Shown one piece after another: positions 4,935-49,001 of a stretch of DNA of 64,000 nt. The DNA is from an uncultured Candidatus Saccharibacteria bacterium (GTDB lineage: Bacteria > Patescibacteriota > Doudnabacteria > UBA920). Numbering within the stretch: the first letter of the stretch is position 1; every line of letters begins with the position of its first letter. Position numbers and translations under genes: made by a program. The notes beneath the pieces are model-generated. The model was not told the DNA's origin. It ran no database searches and saw only the letters and a list, made by a program, of their open reading frames with translations. The stretch covers positions 110,738 to 174,737 of the forward strand of contig CAYTCJ010000002.1 in NCBI GenBank assembly GCA_964436545.1, read 5' to 3'.

Positions 4935-6269
4935 ATGCAACAAATTGACATTGCGGGCTTAAAACTTAATCAACTTAGCAAAACCGATTTGCTAACCAGG
5001 CTATTAAAAGAACTTCGGGCTAATCATTCCATTTGGCTTACCACCGTGTACTCGGAATTTTTATACGCTGGGCTCTGTGACCCAAAAATTATGGGGCTGT
5101 TAAACCAAGCTGATATTGCCATACCCGATGGCATAGCGATGTTTTGGGCAAAACGCTTTTTATACCTCCCGTTTACCGCCAAAACTTATTTGGGTAAAAT
5201 TTTTGAAGCTATTTGGCAAGCCGGCTATTCTTTATTGGCCATTATTTTTTACAAAAAATGGATCCTTTCCGCCTTGCCGGAAAAAATTGTGGGTGCAAAT
5301 TTAATTTGGGATTTAGCCAAACTGGCTAATGACAACCATTTATCCATTTACCTATTGGGTGGATTTGGCGACACTCCAGAACTTGTCAGAAAAAAACTTA
5401 CAACTTACAACTTAAAACTTAAAACTTATACCTCCAATAAACACCCAAGTGATACAACTATAATTAATGACATTAACCAAGCATCGCCCGACATTCTTCT
5501 GGTAGCTTATGGACCAATAAAACAAGAGCAGTGGATTTTAGAAAATCGTAATAAATTACCATCGGTTAAATTGGTGGTAGGGTTGGGTGGAACTTTTGAT
5601 TATCTGGCGGGCCGGCGCCTAAGTCCGCCTGAGTGGATAAGACGCGTAGGCCTAGAATGGCTTTTTCGGCTCATTACTCAACCCCACAGAATAACAAGAA
5701 TTTATAATGCCACGATAGGTTTAGTCAATTTATTAATTCATTATAAAGTTTTTACTTCACTACCCTTAAGACCCAATGTGGCAATTATTATTTTAAACAA
5801 TAAAAATCAAATCTTGCTTTGCGAACGAAATACCCATAACCACGAAGTGGATATTATCAGCACTCGCGAAGCCTTAACGCAAACCAACTATTGGCAATTA
5901 CCCCAAGGGGGGATTGATGCCCACGAAGACCTCGTTGGGGCTGCAAGACGGGAAGCCAGAGAAGAAACTTCACTTACTAATTTACAAGAGCTCTATATTT
6001 CTCCTCATACTCATACTTACTTTTGGAATAATGCTTTAAGAAATTTTAGGAAAAATAATCGCCACAAAAACCGCGGGCAAATTCAGAATCTGGTTTACTT
6101 GAAACATTTAGGACCAGACACGGAAGTTCAAATTGATAATCATGAATTTTCCAATTACCAATGGACGGACATAAATGCTTTAGACAAAACCATCCATCCG
6201 GAGCGAAAAACCCTTACAGCTATTGTGCTAAAAGATTTGAAAGAAATGCAAGAAAAAGGTATAATATAA
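4935..6269 (+). CDS. WecB/TagA/CpsF-family glycosyltransferase fused to a C-terminal NUDIX hydrolase domain
   Basis: The central region (VVGLGGTFDYLAGRRLSPPEWIRRVGLEWLFRL) matches the TagA/WecG fold family. The C-terminal part carries a NUDIX box (GGIDAHEDLVGAARREAREETSL). Confidence 0.7.
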   Translation: MQQIDIAGLKLNQLSKTDLLTRLLKELRANHSIWLTTVYSEFLYAGLCDPKIMGLLNQADIAIPDGIAMFWAKRFLYLPFTAKTYLGKIFEAIWQAGYSLLAIIFYKKWILSALPEKIVGANLIWDLAKLANDNHLSIYLLGGFGDTPELVRKKLTTYNLKLKTYTSNKHPSDTTIINDINQASPDILLVAYGPIKQEQWILENRNKLPSVKLVVGLGGTFDYLAGRRLSPPEWIRRVGLEWLFRLITQPHRITRIYNATIGLVNLLIHYKVFTSLPLRPNVAIIILNNKNQILLCERNTHNHEVDIISTREALTQTNYWQLPQGGIDAHEDLVGAARREAREETSLTNLQELYISPHTHTYFWNNALRNFRKNNRHKNRGQIQNLVYLKHLGPDTEVQIDNHEFSNYQWTDINALDKTIHPERKTLTAIVLKDLKEMQEKGII

Positions 6270-8270: not shown

Positions 8271-8312
8271 AAAAATTTTACCCGGGAAAACCGGGTAAAA
8301 TTTTTATTTTTT
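8271..8312 (+). terminator. Rho-independent terminator after gltX (AAAATTTTACCCGG-gaaaa-CCGGGTAAAATTTT + T-run)
   Basis: Perfect 14-bp stem, 5-nt loop and a T-tract directly after the gltX stop. Confidence 0.7.
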
Positions 8313-8340
8313 GCCAAATTCTGGTATAATTTATACCATA

Positions 8341-9642
8341 ATGTTAACTTTAATTGAAACAAAAAAATTTAAAATTATTTGGATTACTTTGGTGAGTTTT
8401 TTGTTATGGTTAAGCCCAATTTTAACCTTTTCCCAAACCCCAAGCTCAGTTAACGACTTAACTGCCAGCAAAACAGACAAGCAAAAAAAATTAACCGAGA
8501 TTAACCGGCAAATTCAAAATTTAAGCAAACAAATTTCCGATACCCGTGCAAAGACCAATTCCTTAAAAAATGAACTCTTTATTTTTGACCGCGAAATTGC
8601 TTCCACCGAACTGCAAATTCAAGCGAAACAAACCCAGATTGAAGATACCAATTTACAAATTGAAGAAATAGAAAAACTAATTGAACAACGAATCAACGAC
8701 ATTAATGAAAACAAAAAAATTCTGGGCAGTTTAATTTACGAACTTAACCAATTTGATGATGTATACGGCTTACAAACTACCTTAGGGGCCGGCAACCTTT
8801 CGGATTTTTTGGACCAAATTCAGTATAATAATTCTTTACAAGAAAAAATTTACCAGTTACAGGAAAAAATCAAGGAAATTAAAGCCAAACTGGAAAAGCA
8901 ACAAAACGAACTAAAAATTCAACTGGCAAACTTGGAAGAACTTAAACACCAATTGGAAATTACCAAACAATCCATTACCGAACAAAGAAACCAAAGACAA
9001 ATTTTACTTAATCAAACCCGAGGCCTCGAAAGTAATTTTCAAAAACTACTCGCACAAAGTAAAAAAGAAGAATCGGATTTAGAAAAAGAAATTGACGAGT
9101 TAGATTCCGCCATTAGAGCTAAATTGGGCAACAGGACAATAAAAGTAAGTAAGGGTATTTTAGCTTGGCCCATGGACGGCATTCTTACCCAAAAATACGG
9201 CAATACCGGCTTTACCGCGTTAGGGTATGATTTTCATAACGGTATTGATATTGCTGCTCCGGCCGGACAACCCATTTACGCAGTCTACGATGGCGAAGTC
9301 TTGTATACCGATAATAGCGATGCCTCATATGGCAATTGGGTGGCTATAAAGCATAATTTAAGCATAAAAAACTCGGAAACTAAAATTATTACCCTGTATG
9401 CCCATATGCGCTCGTTTAAAGTTAAAGTGGGTGCCAAAGTTAAACAGGGAGACATAATTGGCTACGAAGGCAACACCGGCAATACCACAAAAAAACTTTA
9501 TGGGCCGGAAAGAGGCTATCATATTCATTTTGGCATTTACGATGCCGAAGGTTTTGGGGTGAAAGATGGTAAATACCAAAATATTTATGGACCTTATAAA
9601 ATTCCTTTTGGCTATACCTATAACCCTTTAGATTTTTTATAA
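8341..9642 (+). CDS. Secreted M23 (LytM) metallopeptidase with a long N-terminal coiled coil (EnvC-like architecture)
   Basis: Signal peptide. Heptad-rich Q/E/K region. C-terminal M23 motifs HNGIDIAAPAGQPIYA, GNWVAIKH, LYAHM. The ORF track starts at TTG 8311. ATG 8341 follows TATAAT at 8325-8330. Confidence 0.8.
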   Translation: MLTLIETKKFKIIWITLVSFLLWLSPILTFSQTPSSVNDLTASKTDKQKKLTEINRQIQNLSKQISDTRAKTNSLKNELFIFDREIASTELQIQAKQTQIEDTNLQIEEIEKLIEQRINDINENKKILGSLIYELNQFDDVYGLQTTLGAGNLSDFLDQIQYNNSLQEKIYQLQEKIKEIKAKLEKQQNELKIQLANLEELKHQLEITKQSITEQRNQRQILLNQTRGLESNFQKLLAQSKKEESDLEKEIDELDSAIRAKLGNRTIKVSKGILAWPMDGILTQKYGNTGFTALGYDFHNGIDIAAPAGQPIYAVYDGEVLYTDNSDASYGNWVAIKHNLSIKNSETKIITLYAHMRSFKVKVGAKVKQGDIIGYEGNTGNTTKKLYGPERGYHIHFGIYDAEGFGVKDGKYQNIYGPYKIPFGYTYNPLDFL

Positions 9643-9645
9643 TCT

Positions 9646-10560
9646 ATGACTCAAACCACATTTAAATTTATCTGCTTGGCGTTGTTATTTTTTTACAGTT
9701 TTACTCCGCCGGTCCTCGCCCAAACCCATGTGGGTAGCACGTATAGTGGCCCCGAAGCTCAAATTAAACAGTTTCTTTGCACCCCTTCGGATGCCAGCAC
9801 TAATGGCGGTAAAGCGAATAATGACTTATACAACTGTATTAATCGCATCTACCGCTTTGCCTTAGTCACAGCTGCTTTTTTTGCTGTCTTTATGATTGTC
9901 TTAGGTGGCTGGGTATATATGTCAGCCGAAGGCAACGAAGAATCGGTAACTAAAGCTAAAGATATTTTAGTTACCAGCATTGCTTCCATTGTAATTCTTT
10001 CCAGTGGCTATGTCCTCTTAAAATTTATCAATCCCGACTTAATTCAATTCCAACCCATTCAACCGCCCAGCGTGGTGGGGGTGGAGAGAGGGTATAGTTT
10101 TGCCAACTTAGTAAGCGGGGGACTAGGTAGCGGAGGTGGCAGTGGGGGTGGAAGTAGTGGTGGCAGGAGCGTTCAAAATTATATTTTAGCTGGTTATAAT
10201 ATTGGTCCATATGCCACCAGTCCTAATCATGAAATTGTCGTTTCTAATATTTATCGTAACTTAGGAAGTTACAATTTTTCCTCTGCCACCATAATCGATC
10301 AATACATGAAAAAAATCAGACCCAATACTCCACTTACTGGTCAAATGATTATAAATTCGGCAAGTAAATACTCCATAGATGCCAAATTATTAGTCGCTTT
10401 AATGCAAGCCGATAGCGCCTTAGGCACAGAGGGTTTAGGTAAAAATACCAATAACCCCGGCAATGTTGGAAATACTGATGACGGTAGTATTAGACGTTTT
10501 CCTGATTGGCAAAGTGGAGTTAACGCGGTGGCCGAATGGCTATCTAGACACCGAGCATAG
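9646..10560 (+). CDS. Secreted two-TM module protein with a Gly/Ser linker and a C-terminal GH73-like (glucosaminidase/lysozyme-like) domain
   Basis: Signal peptide, then a 129-aa module with two hydrophobic helices, then a GGLGSGGGSGGGSSGG linker. The C-terminus (LVALMQADSALGTEGLGKNTNNPGNVGN) resembles GH73/FlgJ-type muramidases. The assignment is by motif only. Confidence 0.55.
   Translation: MTQTTFKFICLALLFFYSFTPPVLAQTHVGSTYSGPEAQIKQFLCTPSDASTNGGKANNDLYNCINRIYRFALVTAAFFAVFMIVLGGWVYMSAEGNEESVTKAKDILVTSIASIVILSSGYVLLKFINPDLIQFQPIQPPSVVGVERGYSFANLVSGGLGSGGGSGGGSSGGRSVQNYILAGYNIGPYATSPNHEIVVSNIYRNLGSYNFSSATIIDQYMKKIRPNTPLTGQMIINSASKYSIDAKLLVALMQADSALGTEGLGKNTNNPGNVGNTDDGSIRRFPDWQSGVNAVAEWLSRHRA
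9710..10097 (+). repeat. Copy 1 of a 388-bp direct repeat, 100% identical to 11068-11455
   Basis: Nucleotide-for-nucleotide identity from GGTCCTCGCCCAAACCC through GGGTATAGTTTTG. It encodes an identical 129-aa module in two adjacent genes. Confidence 0.9.
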
Positions 10561-10599
10561 TTAAATTTTAGTTTGACTCTTCAATTATTTTAACCGCCT

Positions 10600-11010
10600 A
10601 TGAAAAAAATTATTGTGATTATAGTTATCTTACTGGTCTGCTTCCTGGTGGCCTTAGGGATTTTAGTAATTCTTAATCAAAAATCCACATCGCCCAATTC
10701 TAACAAACAAACTCAAAAAAAATCGTCTTATAAAATTTCTTTATACGTCGATAAGGACGGTTTTAAAGATGTCTTTCTAAATGACTCTAAAGTTCCATTA
10801 CCGGCAAAAGATATTGAGCAATATATTTCATTTTTTATCAATGGTCCGGGAGATTTAATTTGGGTAAATTGTAACGAAAATTACAAACTCAAAAGCTATT
10901 ATAGTAATACTGGAGAGAATATTATCTTTGATCCCAGCATTGGGTTAGGTTTAGAACTAGAAAAATATATTTATAAGCACATAAGCCTGAGTTGTGAAAA
11001 ATATGAATAA
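10600..11010 (+). CDS. Small membrane-anchored protein (136 aa) between the two hydrolase genes
   Basis: N-terminal transmembrane helix, Cys-containing C-terminus. Its stop overlaps the next gene's start. Confidence 0.45.
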   Translation: MKKIIVIIVILLVCFLVALGILVILNQKSTSPNSNKQTQKKSSYKISLYVDKDGFKDVFLNDSKVPLPAKDIEQYISFFINGPGDLIWVNCNENYKLKSYYSNTGENIIFDPSIGLGLELEKYIYKHISLSCEKYE

Positions 11011-12121
11011 AAATATTTGGATTTTAGCTCTGTCAATTTTACTCCTATTTAACTTTAACGTTTCATTGGTCCTCGCCCAAACCCATGTGGGTAGCACGTA
11101 TAGTGGCCCCGAAGCTCAAATTAAACAGTTTCTTTGCACCCCTTCGGATGCCAGCACTAATGGCGGTAAAGCGAATAATGACTTATACAACTGTATTAAT
11201 CGCATCTACCGCTTTGCCTTAGTCACAGCTGCTTTTTTTGCTGTCTTTATGATTGTCTTAGGTGGCTGGGTATATATGTCAGCCGAAGGCAACGAAGAAT
11301 CGGTAACTAAAGCTAAAGATATTTTAGTTACCAGCATTGCTTCCATTGTAATTCTTTCCAGTGGCTATGTCCTCTTAAAATTTATCAATCCCGACTTAAT
11401 TCAATTCCAACCCATTCAACCGCCCAGCGTGGTGGGGGTGGAGAGAGGGTATAGTTTTGATAAAATTGATCCAAAAATCTTTGGTGAATTTAAAAATTTA
11501 GATAAAGCAAATTCCACCCCTCAAAGTTTTGCAAAAACTGAAATTACCAATTGTAAATCAACCACAGGTAGAATTAATGGCTTTTATCAATTTTCACAGT
11601 GTAATGGAACTTGGGTAAATGATTTATATCCATCGAAAACTGAAACCTGTAAAGAATCTAATGGCAGTGCCAGCACTATTGGCACATCAGCTTGTGGCCC
11701 AAGTTCTATGGCGACCGTTTTAAAATATTACGAAACCAAGCAACAATTAAAACCAGAAGCTAGGGTAAAAAATATGGAAATTAATCCTCAAACCATTGCT
11801 GGTCTGACTGTCGAGCTTAACGAAAGAACTTGTGGACTTGGTACCAACGCTGGCATGTTCTTAAAAGTTGCTAAGTTATATGGTTTGAATGCAAGTACAA
11901 TTTCAGGGTGGACCAATATTACCAAAGAATTAAATAACGGTCATCCAGTGATTGCAGCTATGGGACCCGGCAAATTCACAAGCGGGGGGCACTTTATAGT
12001 ACTACACAAAATTGAGAATAATATTATTTATATAGCTGATTCAGGTCCAAGAGGGATAGATAAATCAGATATCGCTACTGTTCAAAAAGAATTAAAATAC
12101 GCAATATTAATTTCACCTTAG
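10994..12121 (+). CDS. Secreted two-TM module protein with a C-terminal papain-like (C39-like/CHAP-like) cysteine peptidase domain
   Basis: N-terminal module identical to the previous hydrolase. The C-terminus has a Cys nucleophile context (SACGPSSMATVLKYY) and a downstream GGHFIVLH...D, consistent with a C39-like peptidase. Confidence 0.55.
   Translation: MKNMNKNIWILALSILLLFNFNVSLVLAQTHVGSTYSGPEAQIKQFLCTPSDASTNGGKANNDLYNCINRIYRFALVTAAFFAVFMIVLGGWVYMSAEGNEESVTKAKDILVTSIASIVILSSGYVLLKFINPDLIQFQPIQPPSVVGVERGYSFDKIDPKIFGEFKNLDKANSTPQSFAKTEITNCKSTTGRINGFYQFSQCNGTWVNDLYPSKTETCKESNGSASTIGTSACGPSSMATVLKYYETKQQLKPEARVKNMEINPQTIAGLTVELNERTCGLGTNAGMFLKVAKLYGLNASTISGWTNITKELNNGHPVIAAMGPGKFTSGGHFIVLHKIENNIIYIADSGPRGIDKSDIATVQKELKYAILISP
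11068..11455 (+). repeat. Copy 2 of the 388-bp perfect direct repeat
   Basis: Identical to 9710-10097. Confidence 0.9.
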
Positions 12122-12180
12122 TCGCATAAGATACATTATGCGACGCTATGTGTCTTAAATTATCACTGCTTCCTAATAAA

Positions 12181-12211
12181 TATCCATGTGTATATAAACA
12201 CATGGATATTT
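12181..12211. repeat. Perfect 14-bp-arm palindrome AAATATCCATGTGT-ata-ACACATGGATATTT. A second palindrome, GTCGCATAA-gataca-TTATGCGAC, lies at 12122-12146
   Basis: Read directly in the convergent intergenic region. No T-run follows, so it may be an operator or a hairpin rather than an intrinsic terminator. Confidence 0.6.
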
Positions 12212-12419
12212 ATTTACCTATGAATTCTTCTCCCCTTTTTTTACTAACACCGATTTTAAAATTTGTATAAATGTTTATTTTTTCTTTCTACAAATATAAC
12301 TCCCCCCAACATAGTGTAAAAATTTAAACAAAAGTTAACGTTCGCATTAAATTAAAAGTATATTCTAAAAGTATATTCTGTTTTTACCTTATTAATTAAG
12401 CATAAAAAAACTGGCAGTA

Positions 12420-12765
12420 AAATTAAAAACTGCCAGTGGACTAAAAGAGGTTGGAAAGCAAAAAGCTCTCAGGGCCGGAGGAGACTGGCCCGTTTACAAT
12501 CCTCTTTTAGCCACTGGCAGTTACCAGGCACCAGCCTGGCAAAAAAAATCGATAGCGCAAACTTGGCTGTTTTAGCCAAACACCCACCCCTGAGTGCAAG
12601 ACTTCTATTCAAATAGCCTTTTGAGCTAATTGAAGATTCTTGGGTTTGCGCTAAGGCACTTAACTTTAGGAGCAAAGCGCTCAACTGAAAAGCTAAGCTA
12701 AACTAGACGCAAGGGAGAAGAAGCCTTGCTATTTAGGAAATCCCGCCCTTTGGGATTTTTATTTG
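12420..12765. ncRNA. GC-rich structured non-coding region of about 340 bp (candidate ncRNA, strand uncertain)
   Basis: A 20-bp imperfect long stem (12430-12450 / 12500-12520) is followed on the minus strand by a T-run. A plus-strand terminator lies at 12738-12761. There are many internal hairpins and only a spurious 71-aa antisense ORF. GC content is far above the flanks. Confidence 0.35.
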
Positions 12766-12795
12766 ATGTAATCATGTCAGATTTGGTAAAAAAAG

Positions 12796-13182
12796 TCAAC
12801 GACTGGATTTAGTAAACCCGGCTTGCTTAGCCTCGGTTTCTGTATTAAAACACCTTTCCGGTTTTGTATTTTTATAAAAAGCACCGGTAGGTAGATGGTA
12901 CGTCATTTTGCCGGTAGAGCTAATATTGCCCTTAATTTTGCAGGTTTCTAAGGTATTAGGGGTAGTACTACCCTCCCCTACCTCAGGCGGTGAATTTTGC
13001 TTAAAGGTGGAATTTTTAGTATAATTAATGAGTAATTCATGCCGTTTTTTTTCACTCAGGGTTTCGCTTTTATACTTGCCTAACCCAAACCCCGCCAAAA
13101 ACGTTAAAATAAAACATAAAGCAATTTGTAATTCCTTAGGGTGATCCTTAAACCAATTTTTTATTTCTGTATAATTTACCAT
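12796..13182 (-). CDS. Membrane-anchored protein with a small conserved Cys-containing C-terminal domain (CKIKGN...YHLPTGAFY...CFNTETEAKQAGF)
   Basis: N-terminal transmembrane helix. The C-terminal about 45 aa resemble a small 'C-x-IKGN...YH-P-G..Y...CF.tE.eA...GF' module seen in secreted bacterial proteins. Confidence 0.45.
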   Translation of the reverse strand: MVNYTEIKNWFKDHPKELQIALCFILTFLAGFGLGKYKSETLSEKKRHELLINYTKNSTFKQNSPPEVGEGSTTPNTLETCKIKGNISSTGKMTYHLPTGAFYKNTKPERCFNTETEAKQAGFTKSSR

Positions 13183-28362: not shown

Positions 28363-28419
28363 TTTTTATTTGTATTATTTGCATCATTCGCATTAATTAG
28401 CATATTAGCATCGAGTATT

Positions 28420-47792: not shown

Positions 47793-47945
47793 AACAATAT
47801 GATACTAATCTACAAATTATTACTAATAATGCAAATAATACTAATTTTGATCTTTTAAAATTCTCTATGCAGACCAATAAGCTCTTGTTTCGCGAGGTAT
47901 TCGTATAATTTGCATCATTCGCATGCATTAGTATATTAGTATCGC

Positions 47946-49001
47946 TTATTGATTTACATAATTCCCCGCATAGACTATTTGAGGCAATTGAGGATCAATC
48001 AATAAATAATTTACAAATCCCGAAGTGTTTACTTCTTGCGTTTGCCAAGTTTTTGCCCCATCGGTGGATTTATACACCACTTTACCTACACTTAACATTA
48101 CAATATTGCTCGTGGTTTTGGCCACGGTAACGGCTCTAGCCGGCAATTCCGAACTTTGTTTGCCGGGCAAGCTCAGCTTTTCCCAAGTTTTACCCTCATT
48201 GGTGGTTTTAAACACCCCCTTGCCTGCAGTTAAATATATCAGAAGCGGGCTGGTTTTGTCTATATAAACCTGATTAAAAGTCTGCTCGTTTAAACCGGAA
48301 AAATTTTCCAAAAATCCGCTTTGGTTAGTTAAATTTGCGGTCAAGTTTTCAAACTCGCCTTTTTCCAAATTGGTTAACTTATAAAGTCCCTTGGTTTTCA
48401 GTAATACATACATCGATTGATTTTGCCACAAGATTTTATTTATCCGATCATCAAAATTTTTAATTAATTTCCAATTTCTGCCTCCATCGGCGCTATAGAT
48501 TAAACTACCGGCACTATTGCCCAGAACAACTTGGTTGGGCGCTTGCGGATTTAAAGCCACCGTCCTTACCGAAACCACGCTTACGGCTTCACTATATATT
48601 TCTTCCCAACTTTTACCTCCGTCTTCAGTTTTTACCACTCTGCCCTTGTCCGCAAAATATCCACCGGCGTAAAGGATTTGAGTGTTAAACGGATGAATGG
48701 CAAAATCATAAGTAAAAATTTTACTTAAAATTCTTGTCCAAGTGGCCCCACTATCCTCAGATTTATACAACCCATCGTTAAAGCCGGACACATAAACAAT
48801 TTCTCGATTTTTGGGATCCAAGTCCATTTTGGCAACATTCAATCCGGCTAAAGTAGCACTGTTATCTTTAACCACATTGATGCCGGCCCAGTCCACTCCG
48901 CCATTGGTAGTTTTAGCCACCCCGGCAACCACCGGTGTCTTAAAAGGATTACATGATGCCGATATCAATAACAAGCCAATTACAAGTATTTTGTTTTTCA
49001 T
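47946..49001 (-). CDS. Secreted lipoprotein with BNR/Asp-box repeats (beta-propeller, Ycf48/sortilin-like)
   Basis: Lipobox LLISASC. Five or more S-x-D-x-G-x-T-W repeats (SEDSGATW, TEDGGKSW, SADGGRNW, TNEGKTW, STDGAKTW). Confidence 0.65.
   Translation of the reverse strand: MKNKILVIGLLLISASCNPFKTPVVAGVAKTTNGGVDWAGINVVKDNSATLAGLNVAKMDLDPKNREIVYVSGFNDGLYKSEDSGATWTRILSKIFTYDFAIHPFNTQILYAGGYFADKGRVVKTEDGGKSWEEIYSEAVSVVSVRTVALNPQAPNQVVLGNSAGSLIYSADGGRNWKLIKNFDDRINKILWQNQSMYVLLKTKGLYKLTNLEKGEFENLTANLTNQSGFLENFSGLNEQTFNQVYIDKTSPLLIYLTAGKGVFKTTNEGKTWEKLSLPGKQSSELPARAVTVAKTTSNIVMLSVGKVVYKSTDGAKTWQTQEVNTSGFVNYLLIDPQLPQIVYAGNYVNQ

Follow-up and report, generated by a model that had tools for sequence, protein, structure and literature searches.

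A pilin-like module kept identical, probably by recurrent gene conversion, in tandem genes for predicted peptidoglycan hydrolases of a Patescibacterium

Concerted evolution by gene conversion is familiar from tufA/tufB and from rRNA operons. Shared anchoring modules and module shuffling characterize the pneumococcal choline-binding proteins LytA, LytB and LytC and phage endolysins, and polymorphic toxin loci (Rhs and contact-dependent inhibition, CDI) are known for displacement of C-terminal cassettes. Partial-gene conversion has also been described for duplicated mtrA within one operon (PMC4632066). In Patescibacteria, a survey of type IV secretion systems (T4SS) recorded 441 VirB2-like pilin arrays of 2-11 genes, often near virB4 (PMC12102498), with a within-array pilin identity of 25% on average and 54% at most (PMC12102498), and Ca. 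Southlakia epibionticum needs its pilin array to grow as an epibiont (PMC10633639). Within the searchable literature, neither PMC12102498 nor PMC10633639 describes pilin-hydrolase fusions or homogenised modules. Here we analyzed a 64-kb stretch of DNA from a Patescibacterium (64,000 nt of contig CAYTCJ010000002.1; hereafter the window), in which two genes, A and B, share an identical segment encoding a predicted pilin-like membrane module, each followed by a different hydrolase head. Comparison with related loci argues that this identity reflects recurrent intrachromosomal gene conversion, that is, concerted evolution between tandem paralogues, a reading to which we assign a probability of about 0.85.

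The shared segment forms a direct repeat of 392 bp at 100% identity, with a spacing of 1357 bp (Table 1). No other repeat in the 64-kb window exceeds 53 nt, and tblastn found no third module copy there at the protein level. Ungapped identity in the 100-nt flanks is 36% on the 5′ side and 28% on the 3′ side, which is the random level. Both signal peptides are 25 aa long (..VLA-QTH), and in each the repeat opens with the third base of codon 22, with only the final 10 nt of the gene A signal peptide falling inside it. It ends one base past Phe152 (..ERGYSF); beyond that point gene A encodes a Gly/Ser linker and gene B reads 'DKIDPK..'. An earlier note on this DNA had reported 388 bp of perfect identity between two adjacent hydrolase genes in otherwise unrelated surroundings. 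The perfect identity and the unrelated surroundings stand, as does the assignment of both genes as hydrolases (predicted peptidoglycan hydrolases, GH73-like below the family cut-off in gene A and Peptidase_C39_2 above it in gene B); the length is 392 bp, and the genes are not adjacent, being separated by an open reading frame (ORF) for a 136-aa membrane protein.

For comparison we collected about 40 loci, mostly from different Patescibacteria species, by one genome-contig scan and homologue look-ups; loci are numbered with the prefix L, and proteins with P. Those with a specific label are Candidatus Doudnabacteria, and the rest carry the generic label 'Saccharibacteria' of metagenome-assembled genomes (MAGs). 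An initial word-indexed search with the module alone had returned 2 matches only, and a metagenome-contig scan yielded 2 distant loci only; L041 has a single module copy. The array sits in a fixed slot of a housekeeping neighbourhood: about 35 species-level loci read WecG-NUDIX, GluRS, M23, 1-3 module genes, a sunset-domain gene (minus strand), a methyltransferase and L27, with the M23 gene directly upstream of the module genes, and the gene order of the window agrees with this slot.

Copy number and divergence in these orthologous loci, where the earlier note had proposed to look, were informative: there are 1-3 copies, and long exact runs between copies (148-485 nt) occur in 10 of the 19 multi-copy loci. 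The longest run per locus measures 485 nt in L009, 431 in L023, 429 in L001, 422 in L006, 409 in L037 (a 1.21-Mb contig), 392 in the window, 386 in L003, 259 in L004, 251 in L036 (1 mismatch in 388) and 148 in L010. Copies within one genome differ at 0-1 positions in the window, L036, L001, L006, L009, L023 and L037; across species, the module protein is only 40-68% identical. A neighbour-joining tree groups module copies by genome in this first clade and by position in L029 and L032. Copies in the second clade (L027-L034) are 70-86% identical, and in L008 and L030 the copies agree at about 87% and have no long run in common.

The nearest comparison is with L036, a sister species from an independent Joint Genome Institute (JGI) assembly, whose locus is 84% identical to the window and has the same gene order (GluRS, M23, GH73-like gene, small ORF, C39 gene). 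Between the two species, 47 of the 392 module positions differ, through 36 synonymous and 7 non-synonymous codon changes (synonymous divergence, dS, 0.64; non-synonymous divergence, dN, 0.033; dN/dS about 0.05). Within L036 the copies show 1 difference, and within the window none, synonymous sites included. The species-specific substitutions, mostly silent, are found in both copies of each genome. The window copies differ at 0 of 392 positions (upper bound roughly 0.8%) and the two species at 12%. On these figures, the latest conversion in the lineage of the window would date from the final few percent of the period after it separated from L036.

Flanking parts are orthologous by position: the GH73-like head, the small ORF and the C39 head correspond between the window, L036 and L010, and the same kind of correspondence links L004 and L009. 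The L010 modules are 84% identical to each other around a 148-nt exact core. In L004 the copies are 100% identical over a 259-nt hairpin, about 50% identical in the Cys loop, and carry different signal peptides. L009 copies, identical from 6 nt upstream of the start codon through the end of the module, are mosaic, joining a signal peptide of the L004-copy-2 type to a loop of the L004-copy-1 type. The L004/L009 mosaic therefore implies several events, differing in tract and direction. Comparison of related loci thus bears out the earlier proposal of gene conversion or recombination-based cassette shuffling. Its 'very recent' holds for the window, but not as a single event, the process being an ongoing one across many related species; and concerted evolution in relatives, which the note had placed among the outcomes against its claim, does occur and is the same mechanism acting repeatedly.

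Mechanistically, the two module copies would act as direct repeats 1.36 kb apart, on which homologous recombination would copy one onto the other, repeatedly. Each tract would be limited to alignable sequence and break off inside the signal peptides, which have diverged, and at the linkers, which lack homology. Across species, the 3′ end of the tract always lies at the module/linker junction, and it is constant because nothing alignable lies beyond it. The 5′ end falls within the signal peptide in the window, L036, L001 and L006, at or upstream of the start codon in L009 and L023 (signal peptide included), and after the Cys loop in L004 and L010 (helical hairpin only). The borders follow loss of homology, with no evidence of a dedicated mechanism. 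That the tract ends at module borders in the window, as had been noted, is correct; as a sign of a domain-swapping mechanism the observation does not hold, the borders being where homology stops.

The same homology would also offer a crossover point for unequal exchange, through which catalytic cassettes could be deleted, duplicated or replaced. Unequal exchange at the module would thereby give rise to 1-3 genes with different heads in the same slot among relatives. A GH73 head comes first in the window, L008, L010 and L023, and an M15-like head in L004, L006, L009 and L037; by module sequence the window and L036 are closest to L001 and L003 (82% core identity), whose heads are M15/VanY-like and SLT. 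Cassette swapping at the module border, part of the original proposal, was seen in L043 (positions 1648-2756; JGI 3300045379), which is 90% identical to L036 upstream. Here the order is M23, signal peptide A, module, an 8-nt junction of the gene B type ('DKI') and a 629-nt Peptidase_M15_4 cassette, followed by the final 15 nt of gene B and its downstream flank, with one module gene only after M23. M15_4 here stands in place of the C39 head, replaced at the module border. L043 may also lack the gene A loop, whether by a true deletion between the repeats or by a skip of the assembler.

What the repeat encodes is, on profile and model evidence, a VirB2/TrbC-like (PF18895) two-helix membrane hairpin rather than a generic N-terminal half. 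The module spans about 125-130 aa, from the last residues of the signal peptide through a variable loop flanked by Cys to a pair of long hydrophobic helices; an AxA-type signal peptide precedes it in the sequence, and AlphaFold places the helices at residues 57-93 and 98-128 as a hairpin (predicted local distance difference test, pLDDT, 76-82). In VirB2 the signal peptide is cleaved and a two-helix hairpin follows, a topology that would place the C-terminal enzyme outside the membrane. The window module matches PF18895 (T4SS_pilin) with E 8e-6 and 26.2 bits (cut-off 26.6); relatives score above the cut-off (L005 34.5, L012 30.6, L001 28.2, L003 27.9), and weak matches extend to TrbC (PF04956)/VirB2 and to a mycoplasma pilin-like conjugal transfer family. 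A sequence search of the PDB returned linker-composition noise alone.

The architecture extends well beyond this locus. When the module was run with HMMER against 1.84 billion cluster representatives, 7992 matched at E<=1e-3, and the best 150 of these 7992 are nearly all 280-680 aa long with the module N-terminal (residues about 30-170). PF18895 was found in 110 of 122 scanned representatives (E<=1e-3). The C-terminal heads among the 122 comprise SLT (13), Peptidase_C39_2 (6), SLT_3 (5), M15 (4), M15_4 (4), M23 (3), Amidase_2 (2), VanY (2), GDSL (2), CHAP (1) and Glucosaminidase (1), pointing to a large family that joins a pilin-like hairpin to a peptidoglycan hydrolase head. The window proteins (304 and 372 aa), with their C-terminal catalytic domains, are not small stand-alone pilin subunits. 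Separately, the family members P0085, P0092 and P0123, proteins of 550-820 aa, each contain 6-8 tandem PF18895-like stretches, as concatenated pilin-like hairpins.

Could the identity itself be under selection? Conversion may be accompanied by active selection for identity if the modules are interchangeable, co-assemble as a VirB2-like polymer or oligomer, or dock with a common partner, the array then amounting to exchangeable hydrolase heads on one anchor. We regard this as possible, though rather unlikely; it would modify rather than exclude recurrent conversion. The homology to PF18895/TrbC pilins speaks for it, as do the frequency of exact tracts (10 of 19 multi-copy loci), the hairpin region being the most consistently homogenised (L004, L010), and the existence of essential VirB2-like pilin arrays in Patescibacteria (PMC10633639, PMC12102498). 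However, L029 and L032 (also L028, L033 and L034) keep two copies at 70-80% identity, unconverted and in positional orthology, and a clade that retains two unconverted copies implies that identity is not required. Published pilin arrays are, moreover, highly divergent (mean 25% identity; PMC12102498), and no T4SS genes were found in the 64-kb window, where ORFs of >=560 aa are all housekeeping (CTP synthase, P-type ATPase, PBP2, ProRS, SecA), nor any T4SS families in the gene tables of related loci or their flanks. That the module is a working VirB2-type pilin, with hydrolase subunits in a T4SS-related filament or conduit alongside or in place of ordinary pilins, we consider improbable. Were it true, the locus would encode a pilus or anchor with exchangeable peptidoglycan-cutting heads to breach the host wall of an episymbiont, module identity would be selected for one lattice or partner, and the small ORF would be a self-protection factor.

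A very recent module duplication with capture of a new catalytic domain, independently in each lineage and with no conversion, would also yield identical modules before different heads. Heads do differ between close relatives (GH73 and C39 in the window and L036, M15/VanY-like and SLT in L001 and L003, M15_4 in L043), which implies that cassette turnover does occur. Recent duplication per lineage nevertheless does not fit, because the heads are orthologous by position, L010 included, in the same order: the GH73 / small ORF / C39 arrangement is common to the window, L036 and the distant L010. The heads (43-47% identity) have diverged about as far as the module (about 52%), so the pair predates the splits; a dS of 0.64 separates the window from L036, yet each genome shows 0-1 differences within itself; and the mosaic tracts of L004 and L009 need conversion. 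This explanation is accordingly a very improbable one.

Less probable still is an assembly artefact, whether a duplicated single module, two modules collapsed to a consensus, or a chimera through the repeat. The source is evidently a metagenome-assembled Patescibacteria genome, related short-read assemblies break or loop at the repeat, and bubble popping can erase small differences. The ends of the contig L039 (JGI 3300045379; 1391 nt), for example, overlap exactly by 55 nt, and between them is a single unit made up of module, GH73 head, small ORF and signal peptide B. Its most likely origin is the loop that a pair of identical direct repeats makes in a de Bruijn graph, although an excised circle or a tandem duplication would also be compatible with it. 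The L040 contig ends 48 nt into its second module, and the L002 contig just past the module. Such breaks and loops in short-read assemblies are the expected signs of a real identical repeat. Against collapse or chimerism, which the earlier note had kept as its alternative, the same two-gene order with unique flanks recurs in independent assemblies with distinguishable copies (L036 with 1 mismatch, L003 at 96.6%, L004 at 90.8%, L008 at 87%, L010 at 84%); L036 and L010 have, in unchanged order, an orthologue of gene A, one of the small ORF and one of gene B; and a single exact run of 386-485 nt occurs in seven loci, six of them from other assemblies (L009, L023, L001, L006, L037, L003). One protein, P0153, resembles a true recombinant (signal peptide B, module, GH73 head); its source is the L039 loop contig, and it was not counted. 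More generally, a locus that breaks, loops or collapses in short-read MAGs calls for caution over copy number and over chimeric gene calls such as P0153.

Purifying selection, which the earlier note had named together with concerted evolution, could also maintain identity with no recombination, whether it acted on the protein or on a nucleic-acid signal overlapping its gene, and it fits the strong constraint on the module (dN/dS about 0.05). It is excluded as the cause because the two copies in a genome carry the same silent species-specific changes: synonymous codon differences number 36 between species (dS 0.64), and there are none within the genome. Nor does any Rfam family or other-strand ORF explain a constraint on the nucleotides.

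Several points weigh against recurrent conversion of a pilin-like module. The module of the window scores 0.4 bits under the Pfam cut-off for PF18895, and Foldseek gave no match to a solved VirB2 pilin in the PDB, a helical hairpin being a poor query. A test for GC-biased gene conversion was negative, and that variant was rejected: the excess of GC at third codon positions (GC3) of module over head is +0.03 in converting genomes, no larger than in single-copy (+0.06) or non-converting ones (+0.10). Both the event and a RecA-type recombination machinery are inferred, no recombination gene having been observed directly. The copy structure of the window assembly draws its support from synteny with independent assemblies alone. 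Bubble popping by metagenome de Bruijn assemblers could have turned about 99% identity into 100%, hiding a few real differences, and some single-copy loci, as well as L043, could be loops skipped by the assembler and not deletions.

The cluster comprises four closely spaced genes on the same strand: the M23 gene, gene A, the 136-aa ORF and gene B (Table 1). The predicted secreted proteins of genes A and B follow a common plan of Sec signal peptide, module, flexible linker and catalytic head. The real start of the M23 gene is probably an ATG about 30 nt further downstream. Exact-sequence database look-ups with genes A and B (both start choices) returned no match; the gene B orthologue P0003 is likewise 372 aa long.

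The gene A head scores below the Pfam cut-off of 30.2 for Glucosaminidase (PF01832), and its three best Foldseek matches are all the catalytic domain of pneumococcal LytB (7pj3 and 7pj4, E 9e-3; 4q2w, E 0.19; all prob 1.0). With its conserved motifs YAT..HE and MQxDSxLGT, it is a candidate GH73-like N-acetylglucosaminidase. Orthologues of this head are found in L036, L008, L006, L010, L004, L009, L023 and L037, with identities to the window of 57-59% for L006 and L008 and 47% for L010. The gene B head lies well above the cut-offs for Peptidase_C39_2 (24) and PF03412 (22), has Cys and His in 'SACGPSS' and 'GGHFIV', and is a predicted papain-like cysteine peptidase; its orthologues are in L036 and L010, the latter at 43% identity. 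The small ORF gave no family match in profile searches. By tblastn, L036 (80% identity), L008 and L010 have homologues at this place, and in L037 a 145-aa ORF with an N-terminal transmembrane helix lies there, the likeness being one of position and transmembrane helix. It could be a regulator or self-protection factor of the GH73-like enzyme.

Table 1. Features of the hydrolase array in the window, and positions of the downstream hairpin in related loci
Feature	Locus	Coordinates	Strand	Basis and remarks
Coiled-coil + Peptidase_M23 (LytM-type) gene	window	8311..9642	+	PF01551 90.3 bits; first gene of the cluster
Gene A, 304 aa	window	9646..10560	+	signal peptide, pilin-like module, Gly/Ser linker, GH73-like glycosidase head
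Gene A signal peptide, 25 aa (..PPVLA-QTH)	window	9646..9720	+	sequence inspection; putative cleavage site
Repeat copy 1	window	9711..10102	+	392 bp; exact identity; module with Cys loop C45..C64, hydrophobic helices about aa 57-93 and 98-128
Gene A Gly/Ser-rich disordered linker	window	10103..10170	+	sequence; pLDDT < 50 over residues 132-174
Gene A predicted GH73/lysozyme-like catalytic head	window	10171..10560	+	PF01832 26.1 bits; AlphaFold pLDDT 81-95; LytB structural matches
Small ORF, 136 aa, N-terminal transmembrane helix	window	10600..11010	+	after the GH73-like gene; 8-nt overlap with gene B start
Gene B, 372 aa	window	11003..12121	+	ATG 11003 (ORF opens with GTG 10994); signal peptide, module, Cys-containing linker, Peptidase_C39_2 head
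Repeat copy 2	window	11068..11459	+	392 bp; same as copy 1
Gene B predicted Peptidase_C39_2 (papain-like Cys/His) head	window	11681..12043	+	PF13529 54.2 bits; PF03412 29.4 bits
Conserved 24-nt hairpin GTCGCATAAGATACATTATGCGAC	window	12121..12146	+	downstream edge of the array; 13 loci
Hairpin	L001	7250-7273		
Hairpin	L003	7355-7378		
Hairpin	L004	9091-9114		
Hairpin	L006	7267-7290		
Hairpin	L008	8477-8500		
Hairpin	L036	5268-5291		
Hairpin	L043	2756-2779		
Hairpin	L014, L019, L024, L025, L029			

At the downstream edge of the array lies a conserved 24-nt hairpin with the consensus GTCGCATAAGATACATT(A/G)TGCGAC, kept near base-for-base across 13 species with only about 50% identity between their proteins. 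A stem of 9-10 bp carries a GAUACA loop, with one pair varying among UG, UA and CG and another changing from UA to AU. In most loci a -10-like box stands just upstream and YTCCCCT about 25 nt downstream, in some with a terminator-like hairpin beyond. The hairpin has no Rfam match; a small RNA may have its 5′ end here, or a protein may bind to it. The spacer that follows gene B (12122-12795, 674 nt) is 87% identical in L043, above the neighbouring coding DNA, and its positions 12400-12770 (+) fold with a minimum free energy of -136 kcal/mol (z = -6.3 vs shuffled controls). Rfam at gathering thresholds gave nothing, and the hits in the downstream spacer were at chance level only. L001, L037 and L010 are among the relatives with an Aminotran_5 gene in the spacer slot; an aminotransferase pseudogene remnant was searched for in the window spacer and not found.

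Other parts of the slot showed features of their own. At 4935-6269 (+) the window encodes a WecG/TagA-type glycosyltransferase fused to a NUDIX domain; a homologue of this protein has the same position in nearly all related loci, and the gene tables of L001, L037 and L038 give WecG and NUDIX on one product, that of L002 WecG only. The sunset-domain protein at 12796-13182 (-) matches NCBIfam NF051437 (E 3e-16) and appears as ArfC-like in the relatives' precomputed Pfam hits; nearly all related loci have this typical Patescibacteria marker in the syntenic position. Elsewhere in the window, a 53-nt intergenic repeat at 85% identity (TATTTGTATTATTTGCATCATTCGCAT..) occurs at 28367-28419 and 47898-47950, 19.5 kb apart, and may be a shared regulatory element. 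A promoter and terminator scan stayed at chance level.

Collectively, these results bear on how 'T4SS pilin' hits in Patescibacteria are to be read, given a putative pilin-anchored wall-hydrolase family with thousands of cluster representatives, and they point to natural domain swapping in a slot whose 1-3 hydrolase cassettes turn over by recombination at the module. Like tufA/tufB, the rRNA operons and mtrA, the locus has copies that are identical or nearly so within a genome while their orthologues diverge, with synonymous sites homogenised, a tract that coincides with the homologous segment, and copies near each other on one chromosome. Unlike them, only an N-terminal anchor module is involved, the remainders of the genes being non-homologous and of different catalytic folds; the same homology would mediate cassette turnover, and the host is a reduced-genome Patescibacterium.

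The likeness to Patescibacteria VirB2-like pilin arrays (PMC12102498, PMC10633639) lies in the PF18895/TrbC-like module, the same phylum-level group and the tandem arrangement, sometimes interrupted by a non-pilin gene. Those published arrays consist of small stand-alone pilins near virB4. Here the module makes up the N-terminal third of predicted enzymes of 300-370 aa, the surrounding genes are housekeeping ones, no T4SS gene was found in 64 kb, and the copies are 100% identical. The VirB1-type hydrolases PrgK/TraG of monoderm T4SSs (SLT + CHAP; PMC12102498) are likewise membrane-tethered, with SLT, CHAP and LytM-type domains, and the present family has SLT, CHAP, M23, M15 and GH73-like heads. 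PrgK/TraG are, however, single multi-domain proteins in T4SS clusters with a plain transmembrane anchor (PMC12102498), in contrast to one head per gene, a pilin-like hairpin and no T4SS linkage here.

In a further parallel, LytA/LytB/LytC and phage endolysins also combine one anchor with varied heads (glycosidase, amidase, peptidase) and evolve by module exchange. In contrast to LytA/LytB/LytC, the anchor here would be a membrane hairpin of pilin ancestry and not a wall-binding repeat, in tandem genes whose anchor DNA is identical. Rhs/CDI loci similarly use conserved N-terminal homology for swapping variable C-terminal domains, and here too a small gene follows one cassette. Unlike in those loci, no orphan cassette fragments were seen, the small ORF follows the GH73-like gene only, most heads have no immunity gene after them, there is no dedicated secretion apparatus, and the heads look like ordinary wall hydrolases and are not demonstrated toxins. 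The mechanism is thus an ordinary one, segmental gene conversion with unequal recombination; it is the substrate that is new.

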